Below are positions 24,320 through 38,318 of a stretch of DNA of 64,000 nt, one piece after another. A program made the position numbers and the translations under genes. The DNA lies in the NCBI GenBank assembly GCA_001303415.1, contig LJTN01000004.1:6067-70066 (forward strand). Direction: 5' to 3'. The stretch is from Myxococcales bacterium SG8_38 (GTDB lineage Bacteria > Myxococcota_A > Polyangia > Polyangiales > Houyiibacteriaceae). The first letter of the stretch is position 1, and the number at the start of each line of letters is the position of its first letter. The notes below the pieces were generated by a model. The model saw only the letters and a program-made list of their open reading frames with translations. It was not told where the DNA came from and ran no database searches.

Positions 24320-25831
24320 ATGGATGTCACCGCTTCCCGGGCAGCGTTGCATCGCCAGCACGCGAACTTGGTCCCACCCGGCTCCTTCGAGCCTCGCAAC
24401 CACTTCTACTCTCGGGTGCTAAATGCTCAGATCCACCCGTTGGTGTCTTTCTTTCTGCGGATGTCCAACCGCCGGATCGTCAACCGATACTGTCACTTGA
24501 ATCCCCGCGTGGATCCGCAGGCCCTAGAAGACGTGCTCAGCTACTCGCCCAAGCATTTTCAGTGGGCCGGCGCCGATCTCTTCTGCACCACCACCGCCGC
24601 GGGGAATCGAAGGCTGGTCGTCATCGAGACGAATTCCTGCCCCTCGGGTAACAAGTCGATGCCCATCCCGTCGGACGACGACGAGCAGGCCGGCTATCGC
24701 AAGCTGATCGAAACGGCCTTTCTCCCCTTGATTTCGAAGCGAAAAGGGACTTCCGGCGACCTCGCGGTGCTGTTCGACAAAAACCACATGGAAGCCTCGG
24801 GCTACGCCGCGGTCATCGCCGACCTCACGGGAGAGGACGTCTTTCTCACGCCGTTTCCGGACGCAACCGAGGATCCTCCGGCGAGATTCACCGACGGCCT
24901 GCTCGAAGTCAGAGACGCACAGGGGCGGTGGCGGCCCATCCGCGCTGCGTTTCGCTACGTGACGCAGAAGCCCTGGAACCGAATTCCGATTCGAACACGC
25001 ACCCGCATCTTGAATCCGGTGCTGACCTGCCTTTCGGGCGGGCGCAACAAGCTCGTCGCGATGAAGGCATACGAGCTCTACAACGCCGAGCTCGAGGGCT
25101 CGGGGCTCCACATCCGGACTCCGCAAACGATCGGGGACGTGGCCAAGGAAGAGGTGCCGCTCTGGGTTCGCCGCTTCGGCGGCCACGCCGTCGTGAAGGT
25201 TCCCTACAGCAATGCAGGTCAGGGCGTGTTCACGATCGTGAACGAGCGCGAGCTACATCGGTTCATGGAGATCGACCACCCCTACGACCGCTTCGTGGTG
25301 CAAAGTCTGATCGGGAACTACGTATGGAGCTCGGTGGAGCGCGTAGGACGCTTCTATCACGTCGGCACGATTCCAGATCGGCACGGGCACATCTACGTCG
25401 CCGACCTCAGGGTGATGGTCTGTGGCGGGGCAACGGGCTTTCGACCTCTCGCGGTGTATGCGCGACGCTCCAGAAAGCCCCTGCCTGCCGTCCTGGAAGA
25501 GGGGGAATCGTCCTGGGAAGTCTTGGGAACCAATCTTTCGGAGCGACAGCCGGATGGCAGCTGGACCGCGTCGACTGACCGGTTGCTGTTGATGGATCGG
25601 CGTGACTTCAACACCATCGGGATCGGAACCGACGATCTCATCGAGGCCTACATCCAGTCGGTGCTGGCAGCCATCGCCATCGACAAGATGACCGCGATGC
25701 TCCTCACGCAAAAGGGCGGACTGCGCCGGGGGCTATTCCGATCCCTCGATGACGATGACGCGCTGTTCGACGAGATCCGCGAGGGCGCCAAAGGCGCAAA
25801 GACCATCGTGCCGGACCCTCCAAAGGATTGA
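24320..25831 (+). CDS. ATP-grasp-like amidoligase, apparently circularly permuted; function unknown
   Basis: A canonical E-x-N..PSG Mg/ATP motif ([12 protein letters not shown]) lies near the N-terminus. It sits upstream of the Lys/Gly-loop ([16 protein letters not shown]), the hinge (FVVQSLI) and the D-x-R strand (ADLRVMV). The start is uncertain (ATG 24320 chosen; the ORF is open from 24107). Confidence 0.55.
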
Positions 25832-25839
25832 CGCGGCGA

Positions 25840-26817
25840 TCAGGCTCGCTGCTCAAACGCCTCGATGACGGCGCCGCTAAAATCCCGACCGTAGAGACGC
25901 TCGCTAGGATGAAGCCCACCTGGACTGAACACGTTCAGCTCGAGTATCCGGCCGCCCACGAAATCCACACCCACGTGAAAGAGCCCCTCCCGTCGTAGGT
26001 GGGGTGCGATTTGCGCAACCGCCTCTTGCATGGCGTCGGTGACGCCGGACGGCTGGGCAGCTCCTCCCACGTGGAGATTGCTTCGAAAGTCTCCACCCCT
26101 CGGCACTCGGGCGATGACCGCCGGCTGGCCGTCGACCTCGAGGATCCGGCCGTTCACGACGGTCACGCGAACGTCTCCACGGTCGGCGCCGGGGACGAAC
26201 TCCTGCACCATCGCATAGCCGCGCCGCAGCACGACCTCGATGATCTGCTTCGTGTTGGCCTGCGGGCCGGCCGGCTCGAGGACGAAAACATCGCGACCTC
26301 GGGTCCCATCGAGGGGCTTGATGACGATCCGGTTCGACGCCTCGTCGAGAAATCGTTCGATGACCGCGACGTCGCGCGTGATCAGGGTGCGTGGCCTCAA
26401 GGAGGCAGGAGCCTCCAGAAGAGAGAGCTTCGTCTGCGCCCGGCAAAGACCTCGCGGGTGGTTGATGACGCGGACACCCTGCTCGTCCAGTCGCTCGAGT
26501 AGACGAAGGGCCGCCACGTGCTCGGCCCGGCGCGCCTCGTCCCTACCTGGGTTCGTCCGGATGATGCACAAGTCCTGCTCGCCGAGCGCCCGACTCGACG
26601 CTCGGCCTCTGAGGAGCTCCTCGACTACGGCTGCCGGCTCGGTCGCTTCGACACGGCAACCGAGCCCTCGAAGGGTTCCATCGTCGTTCACCGTGAAATC
26701 GCCAACGCCGCAGACCAGAACCTCGTGCCCTCGCCTCGCAGCGGCGCTGATCAAGAGCGTGGTGGTCTGCTCGACGGAGGGCTCCCGCCGATCGTTCACG
26801 ACGAAGCAGAACCGCAT
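25840..26817 (-). CDS. glutathione synthetase-like (GshB/RimK-type) ATP-grasp ligase
   Basis: IVIKPLDGTRGRDVF, GDVRVTVVNG, ARVPRGGDFRSNLHVGG and ILELNVFSPGG parallel E. coli GshB motifs. The ATG at 26817 overlaps the upstream stop (TGATG). Confidence 0.75.
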   Translation of the reverse strand: MRFCFVVNDRREPSVEQTTTLLISAAARRGHEVLVCGVGDFTVNDDGTLRGLGCRVEATEPAAVVEELLRGRASSRALGEQDLCIIRTNPGRDEARRAEHVAALRLLERLDEQGVRVINHPRGLCRAQTKLSLLEAPASLRPRTLITRDVAVIERFLDEASNRIVIKPLDGTRGRDVFVLEPAGPQANTKQIIEVVLRRGYAMVQEFVPGADRGDVRVTVVNGRILEVDGQPAVIARVPRGGDFRSNLHVGGAAQPSGVTDAMQEAVAQIAPHLRREGLFHVGVDFVGGRILELNVFSPGGLHPSERLYGRDFSGAVIEAFEQRA

Positions 26818-27863
26818 CAATGGCTCCCTTGCAAGACCGGCGGGGTCGCGGGGCGCCGTTGAAAGCCGTGGTCTGGCGAGGCGATCACGCCCAAGTGCAG
26901 GATTCGCGCACCGGTTTGGCCCACCGGATTGACGCTCTTGCCCACCACGATGCCGTCTTGTGGCGCGTGGTACTCGCGGATCACGTCCCCGAAGGCATTC
27001 CGAAGCACCGCGACGCGCTCACCGCGACTCACCAGCTCGGTGGGACGTGGAAGCACCTCCAAGAGCCCACCGCGATCGGTGTACATCCAGAACGAGCGCT
27101 CGCACAAGATGGGCTCGTTGCCTTCGGCCACGGGACGCTTTGGGAGCATGCCCGCCGCCGCGAGCACGGTCCGAAGGCCAATCCGCGACGATTTCACGAA
27201 GCTCGGCTGGAAACGCTGAGGGTCTCCCACCTCCAAGGTGATGGACGGAATCCCAAGATCCATCGCGGCGCCCCGCAGCGTGTAGTCCGACGGTGGATTG
27301 TGGACGATGATTTGCGGCCGTTGCAGGTAGGCCATGGTCGCCGTCGCGGGCTGCGTCATGTCGGCACGCACGTAAAGTGAGTTGACGCGGCCGAAGCTCG
27401 CCGTGTGCAAGTCGACCAAATAGTCGAAGCGTTTGACGATTCGGTCGAGGACTCGGTGTGCATACACCTCGGCGACGTCCCCATCCTCGCGCCCCGGGAA
27501 GATGTGATTCAGGTCACCGCCGTCGACGAACTCGCGTTGATGCCGATGAAGACCCGGCACGTTGACCACGACCACGGCCACGAGCGCACCCTGGAGCTGT
27601 CGCGGGTCGATGTGGTGCATCAGGTCGTGAATAACCCGGATTCCGTTGAGCTCGTTGCCGTGAACGGCAGCGGTCAGCCCGAAGACCGGACCATCGCGCT
27701 TGCCGCGCGCCACCAAGACCGGCAGCAGAATGTCTTGGGCCAGGCCATTGGCGACGAGATCGATGTAGAGGCGTGAAACCTCCCCCCGCGGAAAGTCCTC
27801 GATGACGAGCTCGCGATTCCGGAAGACCGGGCTTGTCGCGCCGTTGCGAAGGTCGCCTTTCAT
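26817..27863 (-). CDS. succinylglutamate desuccinylase/aspartoacylase (AstE/AspA, M14-like) family deacylase
   Basis: Zn-ligand contexts AAVHGNELNG and LVDLHTAS. ATG 27863 chosen as the start. Confidence 0.75.
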   Translation of the reverse strand: MKGDLRNGATSPVFRNRELVIEDFPRGEVSRLYIDLVANGLAQDILLPVLVARGKRDGPVFGLTAAVHGNELNGIRVIHDLMHHIDPRQLQGALVAVVVVNVPGLHRHQREFVDGGDLNHIFPGREDGDVAEVYAHRVLDRIVKRFDYLVDLHTASFGRVNSLYVRADMTQPATATMAYLQRPQIIVHNPPSDYTLRGAAMDLGIPSITLEVGDPQRFQPSFVKSSRIGLRTVLAAAGMLPKRPVAEGNEPILCERSFWMYTDRGGLLEVLPRPTELVSRGERVAVLRNAFGDVIREYHAPQDGIVVGKSVNPVGQTGARILHLGVIASPDHGFQRRPATPPVLQGSH

Positions 27864-27938
27864 CTGGGTCCGCGCAACTCTGACACCGCCCCGCAGCCCG
27901 CGCACGTGCCCTGGTCTCGGGCGCCGAAACGGCGCCAG

Positions 27939-27977
27939 TGCAAGCCTTGCACATGCAGTGAGGGCAAGTTTTGCACT
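27939..27977. promoter_or_regulatory. cluster of (T/G)GCA-N5-(T/G)GCA repeats incl. 15-bp palindrome GTGCAAGCCTTGCAC; candidate enhancer (UAS)
   Basis: Read directly: GTGCAAGCCTTGCAC at 27939-27953, TGCAgtgagGGCA at 27955-27967, and GGCAagtttTGCAC at 27964-27977. The core is the same as the sites at 32176-32228. Confidence 0.35.
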
Positions 27978-28026: not shown

Positions 28027-28042
28027 TGGCACCGATTATGCA
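28027..28042 (+). promoter_or_regulatory. sigma-54-like -24/-12 element TGGCACcgattaTGCA
   Basis: GG-N10-GC spacing is correct. However, it overlaps ATG 28038 and also sits inside a sigma-70-like TTGACT-N17-GATTAT (28011-28039). Confidence 0.3.
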
Positions 28043-28682
28043 CGCGGGCGGCACCGTGATTCATCCATCCACAGAAGTGCGATACATCGATGAGGTCGTC
28101 GGTTTGGGAGTCTTCGCTACCGGCAGACTGGCCAAGGGAACCATCACCTACGTCTGGGATCCGCTCGAGATCGAGATCGCTCCCGAGGATCCGAGGCTCC
28201 AAGACCCCACTTTTGCGCCCATAATCGAGCGCTATTCCTACATCGACCCGAACGGCGTCCGCATCGTGAGCTGGGACCATGCCAAGTTCGTCAATCATTG
28301 CTGCCAAGCCAACACCATGAGCACCGGGTACGGCTTCGAGATCGCGATACGGGACATCGAAGCCGGAGAACAGATCACCGACGAGTACGGAATGTTCAAC
28401 CTCCCCGACGCCATGGAGCTTTGCTGCTCGAAAGGGCCCTGTCGCAAGAAGGTCGAGGCCGGTGACCTCGATCGCTACTACGCGCGATGGGACGCGCAGA
28501 TCAAGTCCGCGTTGAAGCTGGTTGAGCAGGTGGAGCAGCCCCTGTGGCCGCTGGTCGACGTGGGGACCGCGACGGCCGTCGAGCAGTTCGTGCGGTGGGG
28601 CAAAGGCTATCGCTCGGTCCGGGACCTGGAAGCGTTCAGCGGCGCTTGCGCCCAGGGGAACGGCGCCGCCTTATCGCAATGA
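28038..28682 (+). CDS. SET-domain protein (putative protein-lysine methyltransferase)
   Basis: GLGVFATGRLAKGTI, FVNHCCQANT and GEQITDEYG are SET signatures. The start is uncertain: both promoter readings predict a TSS downstream of ATG 28038, so GTG 28056 or GTG 28077 are alternatives. Confidence 0.75.
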   Translation: MHAGGTVIHPSTEVRYIDEVVGLGVFATGRLAKGTITYVWDPLEIEIAPEDPRLQDPTFAPIIERYSYIDPNGVRIVSWDHAKFVNHCCQANTMSTGYGFEIAIRDIEAGEQITDEYGMFNLPDAMELCCSKGPCRKKVEAGDLDRYYARWDAQIKSALKLVEQVEQPLWPLVDVGTATAVEQFVRWGKGYRSVRDLEAFSGACAQGNGAALSQ

Positions 28683-29463
28683 ACGTGAGGTCGTCGGGCT
28701 TGGAGGGCTCGCCGTCGGACGAGGCGGCCATTCGCTGCCGGCCCAAGGCAGCCAGCTCGGCGACGGCTCGGGGAAGCGGACCCTTCCGGACACGCTCGAC
28801 GATCTCGTCCAGGTGGAGATTGTCGCTCAGCCCATCGCTCGCCAGAACGACCGTGTCGCGAGGCGACAGCTCGAGAGCTGCACCAAGCTCGATACGCATT
28901 CCATGACCCCCGAGCAGATTGGATACGATGTGCAGGTCCTCGTGGTGCAATGCATCGCCCCGATCCAGTAGGCCGGCCTCGACCGCATACCCCACGGGCG
29001 AGTGTGGAATGGTGAGCCACTTGATCCGTCCGCGCTGACCCGTGACGAGCACCATGGAGTCCCCCGCGTGGTAGGCCCGCATGTGACTGCCCTGGATTTC
29101 GACCACCGCAAGCGTGGCGGCAGCGCCGGTGCCGAGCGCCGAGATGGCTCGATCGGCGGATTCGAAGCCGTTGATGATCGCCTCCCGAAGGTTTCCGAGA
29201 TCGCCTCCAAGCTTCGCCACCGAGTCGCAGACGGCCCGAACGGCGAGCGCTGCAGCCTCTGCGCCTCCCGGATGACCGCCGGCACCGTCGGAGACCACGG
29301 CGACAGCCGCCTCGTCGGCCAGCGATATCAGCGCTGCCGCATCCTCGTTTGGACCCTCGCGCCCCGGCTTGGGAATGCTGAGCACGACGGCTTCTCCAGC
29401 CCCGAGCTCGAACCGCTCGCCTTGGGTCATGTCCACATCCGTAAAGATGTGGGTCTCGCTCAC
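28636..29463 (-). CDS. PP2C-family Ser/Thr protein phosphatase
   Basis: NEDAA, VSDGAGGH and LASDGLSDN motifs. The GTG at 29463 sits behind GGGAGG and overlaps the kinase stop (GTGA). Confidence 0.8.
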   Translation of the reverse strand: MSETHIFTDVDMTQGERFELGAGEAVVLSIPKPGREGPNEDAAALISLADEAAVAVVSDGAGGHPGGAEAAALAVRAVCDSVAKLGGDLGNLREAIINGFESADRAISALGTGAAATLAVVEIQGSHMRAYHAGDSMVLVTGQRGRIKWLTIPHSPVGYAVEAGLLDRGDALHHEDLHIVSNLLGGHGMRIELGAALELSPRDTVVLASDGLSDNLHLDEIVERVRKGPLPRAVAELAALGRQRMAASSDGEPSKPDDLTFIAIRRRRSPGRKRR

Positions 29464-30320
29464 GGCGCCGACCTCCCGCCACGCGTCGAGCCCCGAAGGG
29501 CTCGCGGTTTGACGGCTTGGAAGGCCCGCTCCATCTGCACGCCGTCGCGATACCGCTTGCGCTCGCGTATCTCGATCGCCCGGCGGATGAAGCTGATGAA
29601 GTCCCGGCTGACCGTGCGGCGAAGGCGCTCCGCGCCCGGTAGCGGCCAGTCGAACGGCCACTCCGGAAGCTCCCCCGCGAACATGCGGTAAATCAACAAC
29701 CCCATCGAGAAGACGTCGGACCGAAAGGAGGGCTTCCCCATCGCCTGCTCAGGGGCCATGTAACCGACGGTTCCCTGTCCGGAGCCCATGATGGTTCGCG
29801 TTCGCAGCGCGACCTTCGCGATGCCGAAGTCGGCGAGCCGCACTACCCCGCCTGGAAACAAGATCACGTTGTCCGGCTTGATGTCACAGTGAATGATCCG
29901 CTCTTCGTGGGCGTACGCCAGTGCGGATAGCAACTGCTCCGTGTACGATAGCGCCGTTTTGGGCCCGAGCCGCCGGTGCAACCGGTCTGCGAGGGTTTGC
30001 CGTCCGAGCGGGGTCGCAATGACGAAGTATCCATCGATCATCATCGCGTTGCGTAGCGGCAGAATGTTTTCGTGCTCGAGGCGCGCGGTCAGACGAACCT
30101 CGCGCCGAATGAGGTTCAGCGACTCTTGGTCGAGCTGATCGAGGTCAGGAATCTTGAGTGCGACCGGCACGCCCTCGATCGTGTCGTAAGCCTCGTAGAC
30201 GGTGGCGAATGCCCCGACGCCGATTCGGCGGCGGACACGGTACTTGCCCAGCATCTGCCGCGCCTTGAGGGGCGGAGAGGCGGGTTTGCTTCCGGTCTTT
30301 CGAAGCCCGTCCCAGCGCAT
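29460..30320 (-). CDS. Hanks-type Ser/Thr protein kinase, catalytic domain only
   Basis: GVGAFATV, VALK, HCDIKPDN, DFG and APE motifs. ATG 30320 chosen (the ORF is open to 30512). No TM or sensor domain. Confidence 0.85.
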   Translation of the reverse strand: MRWDGLRKTGSKPASPPLKARQMLGKYRVRRRIGVGAFATVYEAYDTIEGVPVALKIPDLDQLDQESLNLIRREVRLTARLEHENILPLRNAMMIDGYFVIATPLGRQTLADRLHRRLGPKTALSYTEQLLSALAYAHEERIIHCDIKPDNVILFPGGVVRLADFGIAKVALRTRTIMGSGQGTVGYMAPEQAMGKPSFRSDVFSMGLLIYRMFAGELPEWPFDWPLPGAERLRRTVSRDFISFIRRAIEIRERKRYRDGVQMERAFQAVKPRALRGSTRGGRSAP

Positions 30321-30419
30321 GATGACCGGGCGCAAATCTGACACCTGCTCGGATTCTGCGCACGACCTTTGTGGCCGGCCGCCATGGACGGCCCCGAGAA
30401 CGCGAGCCATCCTTGCGCC

Positions 30420-31814
30420 ATGATGGCGCAGCAGACCGGCCGGGTCCTGGTCGTCGAAGGCGATGCGGAGGTTCAGTCCGAGCTCGAGGCTCAACTCACG
30501 GCGATCGGGCATATGGTGGACACGGCGCCCGACGGGGCCGAGGCGCTGGAGCTCGTGGAACGGTCGATGCCCGATGTGATCCTCGTGGAGCTCGAGCTCG
30601 AGGGCATGGATGGGTTCGAGTTCTTGCGGCAGGCCAGAGCCCTACTCCCTTCGGCTTCCTTCATCGCAATCGCAAGCTCCGGCTCGACCGACACGGCGGT
30701 CAAGGCGCTGGCCTCTGGGGCCGACCGGTGCCTGACCAGGCCGATTCGACCAGATGCGCTGGCCCTCGTCGTCGAGCGGTCGCTCGACAAGCCCATCCAC
30801 GCGAGGGATGCGATCAACGCCCGGGCGGAGGCTGCGGCGTCGTTTCCGACCACGCGACTCGATCACATCGTCGGGGCGCATCCCTCGATGCAGCGGCTAT
30901 TCAAACGAATGCTTCAGGCCGCCAAGAGCAGGTCGACGGTCCTGATCCAGGGAGAAACCGGGACAGGCAAAGAGCTGATTGCCAAGGCCGTGCACGAGCA
31001 CTCACTGCGCAGCGAGGGACCCCTGATCCGGCTGAACTGCGCAGCGCTCTCCGAAAGTGTCCTCGAATCCGAGCTCTTCGGGCACGAGAAGGGGGCGTTC
31101 ACGGGAGCCGTGACCCGGCGCAGCGGCCGATTCGAGCAGGCCGACGGTGGCACGCTGTTCCTCGACGAGCTGAGCGAAATGCCGCTTTCGGTGCAGGTCA
31201 AGCTGCTCCGCTTCCTTCAGGAGCGGGAGTTCGAGCGGGTTGGCGGCAACGAGACAGTCAAGGTCAACGTGCGGGTCGTCGCAGCGACGAACCGAGACTT
31301 GAGGACGCTGGTAGACGACGGGAGGTTCCGCGAAGATTTGTATTTCCGTCTGAAGGTCGTCGTCCTGGACGTGCCACCGCTTCGCGCGCGGCCGAGCGAC
31401 ATCCCCCTTCTGGCAGACTATTTCCTTCGCTTCTATTCGGAGGAGAACGGCAAGCATGTACGTGGCTTCACGGCGCGCGCTCGCGAGGCGCTGCTCGGCT
31501 ACCCGTGGCCCGGAAACGTCCGCGAGCTCCAACACGCCATCGAGCAGGCGGTGGTCCTCTGTGAAAAGGAGCTGATCGGTTCCGAAGACCTACCCATCCA
31601 GGCGCCTGATCCGGAGGTCGAGCCATTGAGCTTGCTCGTCCCGGGCGTGACCTTGGCCGAGGTAGAGCGGTATACGATCCTCAGAACCCTGGAGGCGGTG
31701 GGAGGGTCGCCAACGAAGGCGGCCGCGATTCTGGGAATCAGCAAGCGAACCATCCAATACCGGCTTCAGGAGTGGGGGGTGACCAAGCGAAACGCATGGC
31801 CCAACGAAAAGTGA
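30420..31814 (+). CDS. sigma-54-dependent transcriptional activator (NtrC family) with degenerate receiver domain
   Basis: REC-like N-terminus, then an AAA+ core with [14 protein letters not shown] and DGGTLFLDE, then a Fis-type [23 protein letters not shown]. The phospho-acceptor position is Glu57 (codon 30588-30590). Confidence 0.9.
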
Positions 31815-31826
31815 ATCGGGTGTGCG

Positions 31827-32069
31827 CTAGCGGCGGCGGCGCGTTGGCAAGACGTCATCGGGGCTCAATACGTCGAGAACTCCGTCGACGAGCAGAACGT
31901 GCTCTCGAAGGGCCCGACCGAGCTCGGCCGCGATAGGCGCAGCCTCGTCGAAACGCCCGGTCTCGATGCTTGCCTGCATGCTCTCAGTTCTCTCCAGCAG
32001 AAGGCGATTCTCGGTACGGATCTTCTGCACGACCTCAGGGGTGACCAAATCGAGCTGGGGACGCGTCAT
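31827..32069 (-). CDS. small helical hypothetical protein (80 aa)
   Basis: ATG 32069 lies 4 nt after GGAGAA (forward ttctcc, 32074-32079) and about 22 nt downstream of the predicted sigma-54 TSS. No family recognised. The longer 250-aa ORF version is rejected. Confidence 0.5.
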   Translation of the reverse strand: MTRPQLDLVTPEVVQKIRTENRLLLERTESMQASIETGRFDEAAPIAAELGRALREHVLLVDGVLDVLSPDDVLPTRRRR

Positions 32070-32100: not shown

Positions 32101-32116
32101 AGCAAGCGCCGTGCCG
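32101..32116 (-). promoter_or_regulatory. sigma-54 -24/-12 promoter CGGCACGgcgcTTGCT (minus strand)
   Basis: The reverse complement of 32101-32116 matches TGGCACG-N4-TTGCW except at the first base, with GG-N10-GC spacing. The SD and ATG of the 80-aa ORF follow. Confidence 0.6.
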
Positions 32117-32175: not shown

Positions 32176-32228
32176 GGTGCAAGTCCTGCATCCATCCCGC
32201 GGTACCCCGGTGCAGGTTCTGCACCGGG
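32176..32228. promoter_or_regulatory. two tandem GTGCA-N5-TGCA sites, candidate enhancer for the flanking divergent sigma-54 promoters
   Basis: Site 1 is GGTGCAAGTCCTGCATC (32176-32192). Site 2 is a perfect palindrome with 10-bp arms, CCCGGTGCAG-gtt-CTGCACCGGG (32206-32228). The centres are about 33 bp apart. Confidence 0.55.
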
Positions 32229-32298: not shown

Positions 32299-32314
32299 TG
32301 GCACAGAACGTGCT
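32299..32314 (+). promoter_or_regulatory. sigma-54 -24/-12 promoter TGGCACagaacgTGCT
   Basis: GG-N10-GC spacing is exact. It lies 47 nt upstream of ATG 32361, and GAGGAA is at 32351-32356. Confidence 0.6.
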
Positions 32315-32360
32315 CAGACCTCTCGGTAGGGACTTTCCCAACAACAAAGCGAGGAACGTC

Positions 32361-32630
32361 ATGCCAATACGAGGTGACAGAACGAAGCGAGACCGTGATC
32401 GCCGCCACAGCGAGCTGGACTGGTTCGCGGAAGACCCGTGGTCCGACCCGGATCTCGCCTCGTTGGAGGACAGTCAAGACGACTGGGATCCCGAGTTGTG
32501 GGGAACGAGCGACGAGGCTTTGGACGACTGGGACGAAAGCGAAGAGGACGAAGAGTCGGACGAGGACGAGGACGAGCACGACGGATGGGGACCGGTTCGC
32601 CGACGCGGCAAACGAAAAAGCGACGATTGA
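32361..32630 (+). CDS. small hyper-acidic Trp-rich protein (89 aa), no family recognised
   Basis: ATG lies 4 nt after GAGGAA. The N-terminus is basic (RGDRTKRDRDRRH), the core is acidic with 6 Trp each flanked by D/E, and the C-terminus is basic (RRRGKRK). Confidence 0.6.
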   Translation: MPIRGDRTKRDRDRRHSELDWFAEDPWSDPDLASLEDSQDDWDPELWGTSDEALDDWDESEEDEESDEDEDEHDGWGPVRRRGKRKSDD

Positions 32631-32651: not shown

Positions 32652-33305
32652 CTAGCCCTGACCGACCAATCCCTGCACCTGTTTGAGCGCCTGCTCGTTC
32701 TCGACGAGCAGCAACAACAAATCTCCTTGCTGGACCCGAGTGTTGCCGCGCGCGAGCAGCACTTCCTCGCCCCGCACCACCGTGAGAATCAACGCCCCGT
32801 CCGGAAGGTTCAGCTCGCGTATCGAAACTGGATCGATTCCTTGCACTTCGAGCTCTTCGAAGCGCAAGCCTCCGCGAGTCACGAGGGAGAGATCGGGACG
32901 ACCGAATCCGTGCAACGCCGCTAGCATCTCGGCTGCAGCGGAGATGCTGGGTGTCACGATCCGCGCCACCCCGATCTCTTTGCAGGCAGCCCGCAAACCG
33001 AGATCCTTCAGCTTGACCATGACCGTGGGCACGTCGAAGCGTTTCGCGAGCATGGCGACGACCGTGTTGATTGCATCGGAGCTCGTGCTGGCGATCAGGG
33101 CATCTGCCTCTTCGATGAGCGCTTTTTGCAGGAGCTCTGGATTCGTCCCGTCGCCCTCCAAGACGAACGCGTCGAATTGCTCACTCAGATCCTCGCAACG
33201 CTCCGGATCACTATCGATCAGCACGATTTGATGTGCGCCACCCCGCGTCAGGTCTCTCGCAAGCTCGTAACCGATACTGCCGATGCCCACGATGATCACC
33301 CTCAT
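32652..33305 (-). CDS. trkA: Trk/Ktr potassium uptake system NAD-binding subunit
   Basis: MRVIIVGIGSIGYELA Rossmann motif plus a TrkA-C domain. The ATG overlaps the trkH stop (ATGA). Confidence 0.8.
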   Translation of the reverse strand: MRVIIVGIGSIGYELARDLTRGGAHQIVLIDSDPERCEDLSEQFDAFVLEGDGTNPELLQKALIEEADALIASTSSDAINTVVAMLAKRFDVPTVMVKLKDLGLRAACKEIGVARIVTPSISAAAEMLAALHGFGRPDLSLVTRGGLRFEELEVQGIDPVSIRELNLPDGALILTVVRGEEVLLARGNTRVQQGDLLLLLVENEQALKQVQGLVGQG

Positions 33306-34741
33306 CGCGACCTCCTGCGTAGCTTCCAGGTTGCTGGATAGAACACCACTAGCACGGGGATGACCTCGAGTCGCCCGGCCCACATCTGGAAGCTCAACAC
33401 GAGCTTGAGCCAAGCGGGCAGCGTGGCGTCCGTGATGCCACAGGAAAGTCCCACCGTTCCGACGGCCGAAGCGCTCTCGAACAACGCATCGCCCGGATTG
33501 AACCCAGCGAAGACGAGCGCAGCGCTGCCTGCGAGAAGCAGCGCGAGATAGGCCACGATGAAGCCGAGCAAGTGGCGCAGGGGCTCGGCCTCGATGGGCG
33601 TACCTGCGTACTTGAGCGCGATCCTGGCTTCTGCCGGCAACATCAGTCTGTGGATGGTCCATCTCATCAGGGTGAGCAGCACGAGAAATCGCATGATCTT
33701 CAGGCCGCCCGCGGTCGAGCCGGTCGAGCCGCCGATGATCATCCAGAGCGTCGTGAAGAATTTCCTCGTGGGCGACCATCCGGCTGGATCATCGAGCGAG
33801 AACCCAGTCGTGGTGATGGCACTCACGGTGTCGAAGGCCGCATGCCAACCCCTTCCCTCCAGAACAAAGAGCAGCGGCGCACCGGCCAGCACGACGATCG
33901 CGAGGGCCAAGATTTGGGGATCGCGCTCGGTCTCTTGATTCTGGCTCTTCCTGCGGCGCGCGATGCGCTGGTAGTTGGAGAAGCTCGTCGCGCCGAGAAG
34001 CATGCCCGCCATGGTGACGATGAGCACCAGTGGCTCGTTCACATAGAGACCGATGCTGGCTGCGTGAGGCGAGAACCCGCCGGTGGAGACCGTGGCCAGC
34101 CCGTGCAGCACGGCATCCTCTATCGGCACCCCCACCACGACGAGCGCCGAGCACACGGCGCCGGTCAGTAGTGCGTAGATCTTGAGGAGATCGCGAGCCG
34201 TCGAGCGCACGCTGCCCGCAATTCGCTCGTCTTCCGAGCCGGAGCCGTAGAGGCGAAAGCGAAAACCAGCGGGCCGAGTGGCGCTGAGCAGCGCCACCGT
34301 CAAGATGACGATGCCTGCGCCCCCGATCCACTGCATGTACGACCTAAGAAAGCGCAGCGTTCGCGGCATGTCTTCGATGGGCACCACGCTGAGCCCCGTG
34401 GTGGTGAAGCCAGACATGCTCTCGAAGAATCCGTCGATGAAAGGGGCGACGGGAAGGAAGGCAACTCCGCCGGCAATCGAGAAGATGGGATAGGCAAGCG
34501 CGGTCACCAAGAAGGCTTCGCGCGCGGCCAACTCCCTCGCGAGCAATGCGCGCCCCCAATGGCCGAGACCCAATGCGAGCACGCTCAGACCAGAAAGCAG
34601 TCCCGCGACCACGAACTCGCCGCTCACCCAACCGACAGCCGCGGGCGCCAACAACAGGCCCCCCATCATCCGGATCAAACCGGCGAGCTGCCCCAAGATG
34701 GCGGCGAGATCGAGGGGTGTGAGATAGTCTCGCAGCGACAT
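33302..34741 (-). CDS. trkH: TrkH/KtrB-family potassium transporter
   Basis: 479-aa polytopic protein with repeated pore-loop motifs (SGFTTTGLS, VSTGGFS, ITTTGFS, VGTVGLS). Confidence 0.85.
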   Translation of the reverse strand: MSLRDYLTPLDLAAILGQLAGLIRMMGGLLLAPAAVGWVSGEFVVAGLLSGLSVLALGLGHWGRALLARELAAREAFLVTALAYPIFSIAGGVAFLPVAPFIDGFFESMSGFTTTGLSVVPIEDMPRTLRFLRSYMQWIGGAGIVILTVALLSATRPAGFRFRLYGSGSEDERIAGSVRSTARDLLKIYALLTGAVCSALVVVGVPIEDAVLHGLATVSTGGFSPHAASIGLYVNEPLVLIVTMAGMLLGATSFSNYQRIARRRKSQNQETERDPQILALAIVVLAGAPLLFVLEGRGWHAAFDTVSAITTTGFSLDDPAGWSPTRKFFTTLWMIIGGSTGSTAGGLKIMRFLVLLTLMRWTIHRLMLPAEARIALKYAGTPIEAEPLRHLLGFIVAYLALLLAGSAALVFAGFNPGDALFESASAVGTVGLSCGITDATLPAWLKLVLSFQMWAGRLEVIPVLVVFYPATWKLRRRSR

Positions 34742-34800
34742 GGCCCGAGAGGGTACACTGAAGAAGCACTTTGACTTTCGCAATTTCGAAGACAACGCTC

Positions 34801-35268
34801 GTGGGCGTGAGCGAACTATCGGTCATCGGTTGGCGTGAGTGGGTGGCGTTGCCCGACCTCGGCATCTCGCGCATCAAAGCGAAGGTCGACACGGGCGCAC
34901 GTAGCTCGTCCCTTCACGCATACGACATCGAAGTGTTCTCGAGAGGCCCACGCGACTACGTTCGCTTCGTCGTTCACCCCGTGCAACGGGAGACGAAGAC
35001 GACGATCCACTGTATCGCGGAGCTCCACGAGCATCGCCACGTGAAAAGCTCGAGCGGGCACCGGGAGTACCGCCCGATCATCCGAACCTCACTCGAGCTG
35101 GGTGCCGAGCGATGGCCGATCGACCTGACCCTAACTACTCGCGATGCCATGGGATTCAGGATGCTCCTCGGGCGCGAGGCGATTCGAGGGCGGTTCGTGG
35201 TGGAGCCGGGACGCTCATACTTGTGCCGTGGCCTCGTTCCCAAACGCAGGAAGAGGCGCGAAGCATGA
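34801..35268 (+). CDS. RimB-like retropepsin-type / 'ATP-dependent zinc protease' (DUF785) protein
   Basis: [29 protein letters not shown] signature. The stop overlaps the rimK ATG (ATGA). The start is uncertain (GTG 34801 chosen; TTG 34771 is possible). Confidence 0.65.
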
Positions 35269-36167
35269 AGATCGGAATCCTTTCCAGGAATGCGCGGCTC
35301 TACTCGACCAAGAGGCTGAAAGAAGCCGCCGCGGAGCGAGGTCACACGGTGCGGGTCGTCGACTTCACGCGGTGCTACATGAACATCACATCGCATCGCC
35401 CTCAGGTGCTTCTGGCCGGAACGGCGCTGCAGTTTGATGCGATCATCCCGCGCATCGGTGCGTCCCATACATTCTACGGAACGGCGGTCGTGCGGCAGTT
35501 CGAGATGATGGGGACGTACTCTCTGAATACTTCGCAAGCGATTTCTCGCGCTCGCGACAAGCTGCGTGCGCTCCAGTTGCTGGCTCGGGAGGGGATTGGC
35601 TTGCCGGTGACCGGCTTCGCCCGCTCCACGAAGGACATTCAGGGCTTGATCAAGCTCGTCGGCGGCGCTCCGCTGATCATCAAGCTTCTGGAAGGAACGC
35701 AAGGCATCGGCGTGGTGCTCACAGAAACCGACAAGGCGGCGGAGTCGGTCATGGCGGCCTTCAGCCAGCTCGATGCCAACATTCTGGTTCAAGAGTTCAT
35801 CAAGGAAGCCGAGGGTGCCGACATTCGCGCCTTCGTCATCGGTGACAAAGTCGTGGCCTCTATGATGCGGCAGGGGCCGCGCGGAGAGTTCCGGTCGAAC
35901 CTGCATCGCGGAGGCAAGGCGACGCGGGTGAGACTCACGCCAGAAGAACGCAGCACCGCAGTGCGTTCCGCGAAGAAGCTCGGCCTGCGGGTCGCTGGCG
36001 TCGACATGCTGCGCTCCAATCATGGGCCGGTGGTCATGGAGGTGAACTCCTCGCCTGGGCTCGAGGGAATCGAAACCACCAGCGGCAAAGACGTCGCCGG
36101 AGCCATCATCGAGTACTTGGAGAAGAATGCGAAGCGGGGAAAGACCAAAGACCGGATCCAAGGCTGA
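35265..36167 (+). CDS. rimK: RimK-family alpha-L-glutamate ligase (ATP-grasp)
   Basis: MKIGILS..., [30 protein letters not shown] and [12 protein letters not shown] motifs. Confidence 0.85.
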
Positions 36168-37122
36168 GCCACGCGCTCCCTTCGAGATCAACGGCGTCGC
36201 GGCCCCTCCCGGTAAGCTGACCCAGGTCGAGCTGCGAGTGGCGCGATTGCCCACCGGAATGTGGCTTTCACTTCCCGTCGGTGTGTTGCACGGCCGCAAA
36301 GACGGCCCCGTGATTTGGGTCAGCGGAGCCGTTCATGGGGACGAGCTGATGGGCATACCCATCATCCGCCGCGTGCTGGCTCGGATCGATCCCCAGGATC
36401 TCTCCGGCACGGTCTTGGCCGTACCCGTGATCAACGTATTTGGCTTGATTCAAGAGTCGCGGTACCTGCCCGATCGTCGGGATCTCAATCGGAGCTTTCC
36501 CGGCTCGAAACGCGGCTCCACTGCATCGCAGTTGGCGCATCTATTCATGAAGGAAGTGGTGGCGCGCTCCGACGTGGGTCTCGACGTGCACACCGGATCG
36601 GACGGGCGGGTCAACTTGCCGCAAGTTCGGTGCGATTTGACCGAGCCGAGCACGCTTCGCTTGGCGCGCGAGTTTGGCGCTCCTGTGTTGTTGCACTCGC
36701 GTCTGCGTGATGGCTCCCTGCGTGCGGCGGCGGCGGAAAAGGGCAAAACCGTCCTCCTCTACGAAGGAGGCGAAGCGAATCGATTCGACGCGCGCGCGAT
36801 CGCGCTCGGGGTGGGCGGGGTGCTTCGCGTCATGAAGGCCCTCGGCATGATCGACTACGGCGTGGAATCGCCCGAGGAGCCGCCGCACGTGTACCGGGCG
36901 AGCTCCTGGATCCGCGCGCGGTGCACCGGATTTTGCGAAATGATGGTGAGCCTAGGTACCACCGTGGCTGAAGGGGAAACTGTCGCCGTCATTTTCGACG
37001 CATTAGGGCGCGATCGAACCCTGGTCAGGGCCAACAGCCCTGGAATCGTCATCGGGCACGCCACTTCGGCCCTCGTGCACCGCGGCGATGCCATCGCGCA
37101 CATCGCGGCTTCCACGGACTAG
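36127..37122 (+). CDS. succinylglutamate desuccinylase/aspartoacylase family deacylase (paralog of 26817-27863)
   Basis: [10 protein letters not shown] and GLDVHTGS Zn-site contexts. The start overlaps the rimK 3' end by 41 nt (uncertain). Confidence 0.75.
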
Positions 37123-37199: not shown

Positions 37200-38318
37200 A
37201 TGAAAAAGGCTCGCCGCAAGAACCGTCGCTCCCGGCACTATCTGGATCTCGGAAACCGTTACCGGGTGGGGTCCCCGCCAGGCGTTTTGGAGCCTCATCC
37301 GGAGGCCGCTCCGACGGTCATTCGCAGAATGGTCTACGACGCGGAGGGCTTCAGTGAAGAGCGTTTCGAAAAGTCCATCCCCAAGAACAAGCTCAGCCGC
37401 GAAGCGAACCGGGTCCTTTGGCTCGATGTAGTCGGCCTCGGAAGCGCCGAAGCGCTCAAGCACATCGTCACGACGTTCAATCTCCACGCGCTCGCCGTCG
37501 AGGATGTCCTTCACCAGCGCCAGCGTCCCAAGGCCGAGGTATACGGAGACACGCTGTTCATCGTCGTCAGAATCCCGCACCTTAACGAAGGCTCCACGAC
37601 ATTCGAGCAGGTGAGCATGTTCCTCGGCCGGGATTTCGTCCTTACGTTCCAAGAAGAAGAGGGGGATTGCTTCGACTCGGTGCGGGAGCGCGTCCGCCGC
37701 AGGCAGGGTCGCGTTCGGCACGGAGGCGCCGACTACCTCGCATATGCGATTCTCGACTCCGCCATCGACCAGTACCTTCCGTTGGCCGATTCGATGGGCG
37801 ACCGCATCGACGAAATGGAGCGGGAGATTCTGTCGAAATCCGATTCGTCCGTGGTACAGCGCTTGCTTGATCTTCGCGGCGATCTCAATCATTTGCGGCG
37901 GAACCTGACGCCGGCCCGTGATGCGGTTGCTGCGATGGCGTCCATCGCGGGCACGTTGGTCTCCGATGAGACCAAGATCTACCTCCGAGATTGTCAGGAC
38001 CACATCGTACAGCTCAACGAGGTGACCGAGAGCTACGGCGACACGGTTTCGGCGCTGGTCTCCATACATCTGAGCTTGGCTAGCCAACGTTTGAACGAAG
38101 TGATGAAGGTGCTCACGGTCTTTGCGGCGCTCTTCATGCCTTTGAGCTTCATCGCAGGCGTGTACGGCATGAACTTCGACCCGGACGCGTCGCCCTACAA
38201 CATGCCCGAGCTCGGTTGGGCATACGGTTATCCGCTCGTACTCGTGGTCATGGCCGTTCTTGCAGGGAGCTTGGTCTTGTACTTCCGGCGTCGGGGTTGG
38301 CTCGGGGGCCCACCCTAG
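37200..38318 (+). CDS. corA: CorA-family magnesium/cobalt transporter
   Basis: YGMNF signature between two C-terminal TM helices. Confidence 0.85.
   Translation: MKKARRKNRRSRHYLDLGNRYRVGSPPGVLEPHPEAAPTVIRRMVYDAEGFSEERFEKSIPKNKLSREANRVLWLDVVGLGSAEALKHIVTTFNLHALAVEDVLHQRQRPKAEVYGDTLFIVVRIPHLNEGSTTFEQVSMFLGRDFVLTFQEEEGDCFDSVRERVRRRQGRVRHGGADYLAYAILDSAIDQYLPLADSMGDRIDEMEREILSKSDSSVVQRLLDLRGDLNHLRRNLTPARDAVAAMASIAGTLVSDETKIYLRDCQDHIVQLNEVTESYGDTVSALVSIHLSLASQRLNEVMKVLTVFAALFMPLSFIAGVYGMNFDPDASPYNMPELGWAYGYPLVLVVMAVLAGSLVLYFRRRGWLGGPP

Follow-up and report, generated by a model that had tools for sequence, protein, structure and literature searches.

Pseudo-receiver domains are common, and little is known of what turns them on and off (PMC12632262). 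The replacements most often found in them are Asp to Glu, Thr to Ala and Lys to Arg (2025 J Bacteriol perspective, PMC12632262), and Glu is the commonest substitute for the phospho-accepting Asp, being present in 26% of aspartate-less receivers (Maule et al. 2015, PMC4395418). For some pseudo-receivers, the idea that such a Glu mimics aspartyl-phosphate has been refuted (PMC12632262); in true receivers, too, a Glu by itself is frequently not enough, and in ChxR its replacement had no effect (PMC4395418). The regulator FleQ is listed among the pseudo-receiver proteins (PMC12632262), and the control of atypical receivers by Ser/Thr kinases is discussed in PMC4395418, which also cites RitR. Here we describe a 64,000-nucleotide stretch of DNA from Myxococcales bacterium SG8_38 (contig LJTN01000004.1, positions 6,067 to 70,066; hereafter the window, whose own numbering is used throughout), which carries the gene for an NtrC-family sigma-54 activator with a degenerate N-terminal receiver. 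We read this protein, with a probability of roughly 0.6 for the reading as a whole, as a pseudo-receiver sigma-54 activator in which Glu57 is tolerated, which acts on flanking palindromes and promoters, and whose input comes from something other than a histidine kinase. The gene and its N-terminal domain are located as follows:

30420-31814, plus strand: sigma-54 enhancer-binding protein of the NtrC family, 464 amino acids, identified by Pfam, motifs, AlphaFold2 and Foldseek; it comprises a pseudo-receiver (residues 1-122), a linker helix (about 123-140), an AAA+ sigma-54 interaction domain (150-393) and HTH_8 (411-452)
30420-30800, plus strand: pseudo-receiver domain, with E13-G14, E57, A85, C104 and R107 in place of catalytic residues

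The activator lies in an open reading frame (ORF) spanning 30369-31814 on the plus strand, with ATG 30420 as the likely start. Pfam assigned Response_reg (PF00072) to residues 9-117 with 68 bits (gathering cut-off 30.2), Sigma54_activat (PF00158) to residues 150-316 (E = 5e-72), followed by AAA_lid_14, and the Fis-type DNA-binding domain HTH_8 to residues 411-452 (E = 5e-10). The AAA+ domain contains the Walker A and B motifs and the GAFTGA loop. Its motifs, including TLFLDE, are invariant in 65 members of the activator family, and the HTH is likewise invariant across the family, which bears out the statement in a preliminary description of this DNA, made from the letters alone, that both parts are intact. 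The best Foldseek matches were NtrC1 (1ny5), NtrX, NtrC4, LuxO, ZraR and FleQ, with the AAA+ domain matching those of NtrC1 and ZraR. No NCBIfam equivalog cut-off was passed, the best model being AtoC with 451 bits against a cut-off of 714. In every sequence-level feature the protein is an NtrC-family sigma-54 activator, for which open-complex formation is predicted, and as an annotation it is an ordinary orphan sigma-54 activator in a myxobacterium rich in such genes.

When compared to characterized members of the family, the Aquifex proteins NtrC1 and NtrC4 were the best structural matches (1ny5, 4l4u and 3dzd), while 1dc7 was found by sequence. The activator shares with them and with enteric NtrC the GAFTGA loop, the Walker motifs and HTH_8. 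In contrast to these proteins, it has other residues at every one of the acceptor Asp, acidic pair, Thr, Lys and switch Tyr positions, and no cognate histidine kinase gene adjoins it in the loci scanned. The activator resembles FleQ of Pseudomonas aeruginosa and FlrA in its three-domain layout and in a receiver-like N-terminal domain that is non-phosphorylated, and the FleQ structure 8p53 was among the Foldseek matches, with a sequence identity of about 36% overall. Unlike FleQ, its N-terminal domain matches PF00072, and no match to the FleQ domain (PF06490) was reported by Pfam; nor did the gene calls for the related loci include fleN-like or flagellar genes. FleQ is the nearest functional analogue among activators, and its genomic context differs.

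The landmark residues of the receiver were placed in four independent ways that agreed with each other: phmmer, tblastn, a paralogue profile and the AlphaFold2 model. In the phmmer search against PDB chains, the segment around Glu57 (codon GAG, 30588-30590) paired with PDIILLDVMMPGMDGF of PleD, VVEGD with VVDD, IAIASS with VLITAL, and LTRP with LTKP. The tblastn comparison with dozens of canonical paralogues, bearing the signature DD(E)..D..T..K, yielded the identical register. A profile built from 48 canonical paralogue receivers with this signature aligned to the query without gaps and with top posterior at every column, giving the replacements D to E13, D to G14, D to E57, T to A85, switch Y to C104 and K to R107, with S86 at the T+1 position. 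The AlphaFold2 receiver, modelled at a pLDDT (predicted local distance difference test) of about 90, has the CheY-like (beta-alpha)5 fold with five strands and five helices; E57 ends beta3 (53-57), A85 ends beta4 (80-85), and R107 comes directly after beta5 (103-106). The preliminary description had placed Glu57 at the phospho-acceptor site by eye, together with an E-G acidic pair, Ala for Thr and Arg for Lys, and these placements were all recovered; neither the profile alignment nor the predicted structure puts a genuine Asp at the acceptor position, which is occupied by Glu57 instead.

Of the residues that define a canonical receiver, the activator thus has neither the acceptor Asp nor the acidic pair, the Thr/Ser after beta4 or the Lys after beta5. 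D15, which follows E13-G14 and matches the last acidic residue in the 'DDD/DDE' motif of the NtrC type, is kept in 64 of the 72 non-redundant orthologue receivers in which residues were counted. As judged from alignment and model, the N-terminal domain is shown to be a genuine pseudo-receiver, predicted to have kept the fold and lost the His-Asp phosphotransfer chemistry. It is like the described aspartate-less receivers in its PF00072 match, its (beta-alpha)5 fold, the changes Asp to Glu, Thr to Ala and Lys to Arg, and the retained alpha4-beta5-alpha5 face. It is unlike them in being fused to a sigma-54 AAA+ activator and in having an acceptor position that varies between E, G, A and D within one orthologous family. 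By its residues the domain falls within the definition of a pseudo-receiver or aspartate-less receiver, a degenerate state shared by its relatives, and receiver degeneration of this kind is common and already described. Regarding possible phosphodonors, no gene encoding HisKA or HATPase_c was present within about 6-7 kb of the activator in the gene-called related loci L005/L006 (the closest equivalents of the window), L007, L171 and L172, and no histidine kinase was found by Pfam in the eight window ORFs scanned (about 24.1-32.6 kb). In L174, a hybrid kinase ends about 2.1 kb upstream of the activator with three genes between, and is not adjacent to it.

Orthologues of the activator are numerous (58-96% identity), and all stem from genomes of uncultured Polyangiales or Sandaracinaceae-like bacteria and from metagenomes of sediment or soil. 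Among the 72 receivers, position 57 is E in 41, G in 12, D in 9, A in 8, N in 1 and T in 1, and ranks as the 23rd most variable of 114 receiver positions. The E/G/D/A variation occurs among orthologues 75-96% identical; for example, Gly57 is found in orthologues 88-89% identical to the query and Ala57 in one that is 75% identical. The other landmark positions also vary: S, G, N or P is found at position 14, A or G at 85, and predominantly R at 107, with H, Q, M, L or G as the alternatives, and the switch Tyr position holds Cys or Leu in most. Mean entropy in the orthologue alignment was lowest in the HTH (0.32 bits), the least variable part, followed by the AAA+ domain (0.39) and alpha4-beta5-alpha5 (0.69), and reached 1.17 bits over the remainder of the receiver. 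Former active-site positions drift within the family, and the alpha4-beta5-alpha5 face, the AAA+ motor and the HTH are under strong constraint; the pseudo-receiver would now have a structural or regulatory role, by dimerising or by contacting the AAA+ ring, and not that of a phospho-acceptor.

Since position 57 is Gly or Ala in close orthologues and varies more than most of the receiver, it is unlikely that a phosphomimic Glu is required. A phosphomimetic Glu is thought to engage Thr and Lys (PMC12632262), and both of these presumed partners are replaced in the activator. Taken together, the orthologue sequences point to Glu57 as a tolerated residue and not an essential aspartyl-phosphate mimic, and it is probably not an 'always-on' mimic. 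The suggestion of the preliminary description that the protein may be constitutively primed by Glu57 is not supported, given the variation within orthologues 75-96% identical and the replaced Thr and Lys. The precedent on which it drew, NtrC D54E, is real (Klose et al. 1993, cited as reference 31 in PMC4395418).

Beyond the orthologues, a sister clade (52-60% identical) keeps the full DD..D..T..K set, and canonical and degenerate types co-occur in two genomes (L019 with L046, and L020 with L037). The canonical proteins fall into a single clade of a neighbour-joining tree, and the query family is situated in a second, diversified group in which all receivers are degenerate in one way or another; pseudo-receiver activators are therefore numerous in these bacteria. 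At least eight further Polyangiales sigma-54 activator subfamilies have differently degenerate receivers, for instance with a Gly acceptor and Trp or Phe in place of Lys; subfamilies of this kind include L022/L023, L028-L032/L045, L052, L065, L071-L074, L079/L090 and L085-L087, and they group together in the tree, separate from the canonical DD..D..T..K clade.

The predicted targets of the activator are located on both sides of its gene, in two modules. The one directly downstream consists of:

31827-32069, minus strand: conserved gene for an 80-amino-acid protein, convergent with the activator gene
32101-32116, minus strand: sigma-54-type promoter CGGCACGGCGCTTGCT (GG-N10-GC), about 30 nt upstream of the 80-amino-acid gene
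32177-32191 and 32210-32224: two palindromes, GTGCAAGTCCTGCAT and GTGCAGGTTCTGCAC, with centres 33 bp apart, a putative enhancer (upstream activating sequence)
32299-32314, plus strand: sigma-54-type promoter TGGCACAGAACGTGCT, about 45 nt upstream of the small acidic gene
32361-32630, plus strand: small acidic gene, 89 amino acids, with a very acidic C-terminus and a GAGGAA ribosome-binding site

The module upstream of the activator gene consists of:

27938-27952 and 27962-27976: second palindrome pair, GTGCAAGCCTTGCAC and GGGCAAGTTTTGCAC, between the AstE-like and SET genes
28027-28042, plus strand: sigma-54-type promoter TGGCACCGATTATGCA, just before the conserved SET start GTG 28056
28056-28682, plus strand: SET-domain gene (Pfam PF00856), lysine methyltransferase-like

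The downstream palindrome pair lies between the two divergent sigma-54 promoters. When 21 orthologous loci were examined, this divergent promoter pair with two GTGCA-N5-TGCAC palindromes was present in all of them, in L002 only partially, where the minus-strand promoter and the palindrome pair alone passed the threshold and a homologue of the acidic gene was not detectable. Across loci, the promoters are 165-205 bp apart and the palindrome centres 32-34 bp apart. GTGCA-N5-TGCAC is over-represented in the window (6 matches versus 1.8 expected), and none of 100 shuffles reached 6. The 80-amino-acid gene adjoins every activator orthologue that is at least 71% identical, and neither its product nor the 89-amino-acid acidic protein matches a Pfam or NCBIfam family. 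Tandem palindromic upstream sites of this type resemble NtrC-type enhancers. The strict co-conservation in 21 loci, together with the very conserved HTH, argues that the activator binds the GTGCA-N5-TGCAC sites, and the conserved promoter-palindrome modules, newly described here, are likely targets of the activator as judged from their sequence.

Likewise, the SET promoter is conserved in L005, L007, L011, L016, L171, L008 and L015, with the second palindrome pair upstream of it, so that three GG-N10-GC promoters with paired palindromes, a feature of the NtrC type, are found near the activator, which would use them. In kinase-less loci the SET gene is situated directly upstream of the activator on the same strand, which makes autoregulation of the activator possible there. 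The SET protein matches no NCBIfam model. Annotations of the SET gene in related contigs probably begin too far upstream, the conserved start being GTG/ATG-ATTCATCC.

Concerning expression, a 251-nt sediment metatranscriptome contig (run X13, about 86-90% identical) covers 32353-32606, corresponding to the acidic gene of a relative from near its start codon, and provides weak evidence for expression of the acidic gene in situ. This trace came from one run only among the metatranscriptomes; the other hits were conserved AAA+ motifs of other activators, and start sites were not informed by these data.

The genes between the SET gene and the activator encode a kinase and a phosphatase, which the preliminary description had named as the obvious candidate for another input:

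29460-30320, minus strand: Hanks-type Ser/Thr kinase, 286 amino acids, kinase domain only, with HCDIKPDN, DFG and APE present
28636-29463, minus strand: PP2C phosphatase, 275 amino acids, also called as 275-amino-acid genes in L005 and L007

There is a 4-nt overlap between the GTG start of the PP2C gene and the kinase stop codon, an arrangement suggestive of translational coupling, and the kinase operon is divergent from the activator gene. The kinase start, ATG 30320, is conserved in orthologous loci. The kinase-PP2C pair adjoins the activator in 9 of the 19 lineages of known context, namely the window, L011, L012, L171, L013 (where the kinase is about 750 bp from the activator), L016, L020, L021 and L172, and is absent in 10. 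A metagenome scan for further orthologous loci recovered seven extra ones, none of them newly kinase-linked. The linked loci are dispersed through the activator tree, down to basal branches (L020, L021 and L172), and kinase identity tracks activator identity across them; the linkage of kinase and activator is therefore old. In L079 and L090, which form a clade with a 54%-identical activator, a 54%-identical kinase and a 48%-identical PP2C are located directly upstream on the same strand, in a gene order that is co-directional and not divergent. The receiver is equally degenerate in loci with and without the kinase.

The same cassette, with an 83%-identical kinase, was also found between dctP and a short-chain fatty acid transporter, with no activator nearby, and the kinase family comprises more than 120 clusters at an identity of at least 79%, exceeding the number of activator orthologues. 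Kinase adjacency is weak evidence because the cassette occurs away from any activator and is more widespread, and the kinase probably has other or additional substrates. Myxobacteria encode hundreds of Hanks-type kinases, and chance adjacency is not rare. The proposed kinase and PP2C input is weakly supported: the pair does adjoin the activator in 9 of the 19 lineages, but the cassette also occurs without an activator. Position 86 shows a suggestive pattern, which we treat as a hypothesis only. Ser86 is present in 6 of the 9 kinase-linked lineages and in none of the 10 unlinked ones (Fisher p = 0.003, uncorrected for phylogeny), and 6 of these 10 have Glu or Asp. The linked lineages without Ser86 are L016 (E), L021 (A) and L172 (A). 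L079 and L090 bear Ser and Thr at this position, residues that no other degenerate clade has there.

WalR, CovR and VraR are response regulators under the control of Hanks-type Ser/Thr kinases. The activator is similar to these systems in that a receiver-family regulator adjoins a kinase and PP2C pair. In contrast to RitR, WalR, CovR and VraR, the linkage exists in about half of the lineages, and the known examples are OmpR- or NarL-type DNA binders and not sigma-54 activators. The literature searches yielded no specific precedent for a Ser/Thr kinase acting on a sigma-54 activator, nor an NtrC-like pseudo-receiver in myxobacteria; PexR has a GAF domain and not a receiver.

According to the reading favoured here, the activator belongs to a subfamily from uncultured Polyangiales of sediments and would most likely bind the paired GTGCA-N5-TGCAC palindromes that flank its gene, thereby switching on the adjacent sigma-54 promoters of the 80-amino-acid gene, the small acidic gene and the SET-domain gene. 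Its input would not be His-Asp phosphotransfer; the activator might be controlled through Ser/Thr phosphorylation by the linked kinase and PP2C, by a partner protein or simply through its own abundance, the linked kinase being the leading, weakly supported candidate. Some observations weigh against this reading. Glu57 is the majority state (41 of 72 orthologues), it occurs in 9 of 10 kinase-unlinked lineages versus 4 of 9 linked ones (p = 0.057, uncorrected for phylogeny), and a contribution of Glu57 in the unlinked lineages is possible. The linker has low confidence in the AlphaFold model, in which positive and negative coupling between receiver and AAA+ domain are not distinguishable. Another activator could also use the palindromes, given that binding by this one is deduced from co-location in the sequence.

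How the activator is switched can be explained in several other ways. The neighbouring kinase and PP2C might reversibly phosphorylate the pseudo-receiver on Ser/Thr, with Ser86 as the best candidate, and so switch the activator, an explanation we consider possible but on balance unlikely. It accounts for the adjacency in scattered lineages down to the basal branches, for the parallel divergence of kinase and activator, for the diverged pair in L079/L090, and for the distribution of Ser86 and of its Ser/Thr counterparts in that clade, and Ser/Thr kinase control of atypical receivers has been discussed (PMC4395418). It has to contend with the activator-free cassette, the excess of kinase clusters, the three linked lineages that have no Ser86, a small sample of phylogenetically non-independent lineages, the frequency of chance adjacency, the missing precedent in the literature and the absence of an FHA domain from the activator. 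A bolder form of this idea, more doubtful still, is that the phosphoryl input was moved and not lost: kinase and PP2C would act on Ser/Thr86, and the unlinked lineages would use Glu/Asp86 and Glu57 as phosphomimics. Residue 86 is beside the old Thr in the beta4-alpha4 loop near the former active site, where a phosphate would be roughly at the old aspartyl-phosphate position. If true, a His-Asp switch would have been converted in nature into a Ser/Thr switch within a sigma-54 activator.

Control by abundance only, with Glu57 mimicking aspartyl-phosphate as in NtrC D54E and the activator constitutively active, seems improbable. The prevalence of Glu at position 57, highest in the unlinked lineages, extra acidic residues at positions 59 and 61, and the D54E precedent (Klose 1993, as cited in PMC4395418) would favour it, but close orthologues that are otherwise unchanged carry Gly or Ala at this position (L012, L171, L020 and L021), the mimic partners at 85 and 107 are Ala/Gly and Arg, with Cys or Leu for the switch Tyr in most, and Glu is often insufficient in true receivers and was without effect when changed in ChxR (PMC4395418). 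About equally improbable is a feedback loop like PspA-PspF or HrpV-HrpS, in which a partner encoded in the regulon, the 80-amino-acid or the acidic protein, would restrain or release the activator by docking on the pseudo-receiver. The constant presence of the 80-amino-acid gene beside orthologues at least 71% identical, the conserved sigma-54 promoters on both small genes and the conserved alpha4-beta5-alpha5 surface are consistent with such a loop; the argument is one of gene neighbourhood, however, and the small proteins match no family and could be plain effectors. Finally, it is very improbable that an unlinked histidine kinase still phosphorylates another acidic residue (such as D15, D52, D64 or Glu57 itself). 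Conservation of D15 in 64 of 72 orthologues and Asp57 in 9 of 72 would allow for this, but Gly or Ser stands in for the metal-binding Asp, and Thr and Lys are likewise replaced, losses that extend to the Asp57 orthologues, and no histidine kinase is adjacent in any gene-called locus, the hybrid kinase of L174 included.

The family is a compact testable system, in which a degenerate-receiver activator is accompanied by clearly predicted DNA sites and sigma-54 target promoters beside its gene. The natural E/G/A/D acceptor variants, along with lineages with and without the kinase-phosphatase pair, can be used to ask whether Glu matters, and the same family can be used to ask whether Ser/Thr phosphorylation has replaced Asp phosphorylation. 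Only the conserved regulon architecture and the Ser86 pattern may merit specialist follow-up.

Other sequence motifs were identified upstream of the activator and kinase genes. TGGACG-N17-CCATCCTT is situated at about 30375-30420, 5-6 nt before the activator start, in kinase-linked and kinase-less loci, and is also found upstream of the activator in L014, L015, L017-L019 and L174; this motif probably serves as a sigma-70-type promoter for the activator gene itself, the mRNA having no leader or almost none. A candidate sigma-54 promoter for the kinase operon, TGGCGCAAGGATGGCT at 30405-30420, was rejected because its spacing and sequence are unconserved in other kinase-linked loci, and also because it is the reverse complement of the motif CCATCCTT, which is present in kinase-less loci too. 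An exact 14-nt motif, GGTGTCAGA(G/T)TTGC (GGTGTCAGAkTTGC), occurs only twice in the 64-kb window, at 27874-27887 and 30332-30345, both on the minus strand, 10-11 nt upstream of the starts of the AstE-like gene (ATG 27863) and the kinase gene (ATG 30320), respectively, and each copy is preceded by CGTGCGC 16 nt further upstream. This shared motif suggests that the kinase-PP2C and AstE/GshB-like operons are co-regulated, possibly with leaderless transcripts. Its interpretation as a sigma-54 promoter is doubtful, given that GG is GA in L012, L016 and L171, and it was retained only as a shared regulatory motif.

Regarding the wider neighbourhood, TrkA/TrkH are encoded at 32652-34795 and CorA at about 37200-38300 (coordinates inferred from L005). 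Cation-homeostasis genes recur beside the module in orthologous loci, including L001, L008, L172, L173 and L174, and the recurrent neighbours comprise TrkAH, CorA, MgtE, CNNM/CorC, cation-efflux proteins, a Castor/RCK channel and mechanosensitive channels; the regulon may respond to ionic or osmotic conditions. The Mg2+ and K+ transporters also raised the idea of the pseudo-receiver as a Mg2+ sensor, which is unlikely, as the main metal-binding Asp has given way to Gly or Ser and position 57 tolerates Gly and Ala. The module is flanked by two separate gene pairs, each encoding a GshB/RimK-like ATP-grasp ligase together with an AstE/aspartoacylase-like hydrolase, at 25840-27863 on the minus strand and 35262-37122 on the plus strand, and a RimB-like gene (34771-35268) is located upstream of the second pair. 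The acidic protein encoded at 32361-32630, with its poly-acidic C-terminus, is a conceivable RimK-type substrate. A 503-amino-acid ORF without a Pfam match (24320-25831, plus strand) is syntenic in L005, L007 and L172. In L010, a relaxase, a NikA-like gene and an integrase (6028-8660 in L010 numbering) are found 4-7 kb downstream of an 85%-identical activator, and a mobile element is inserted near the module in this locus.

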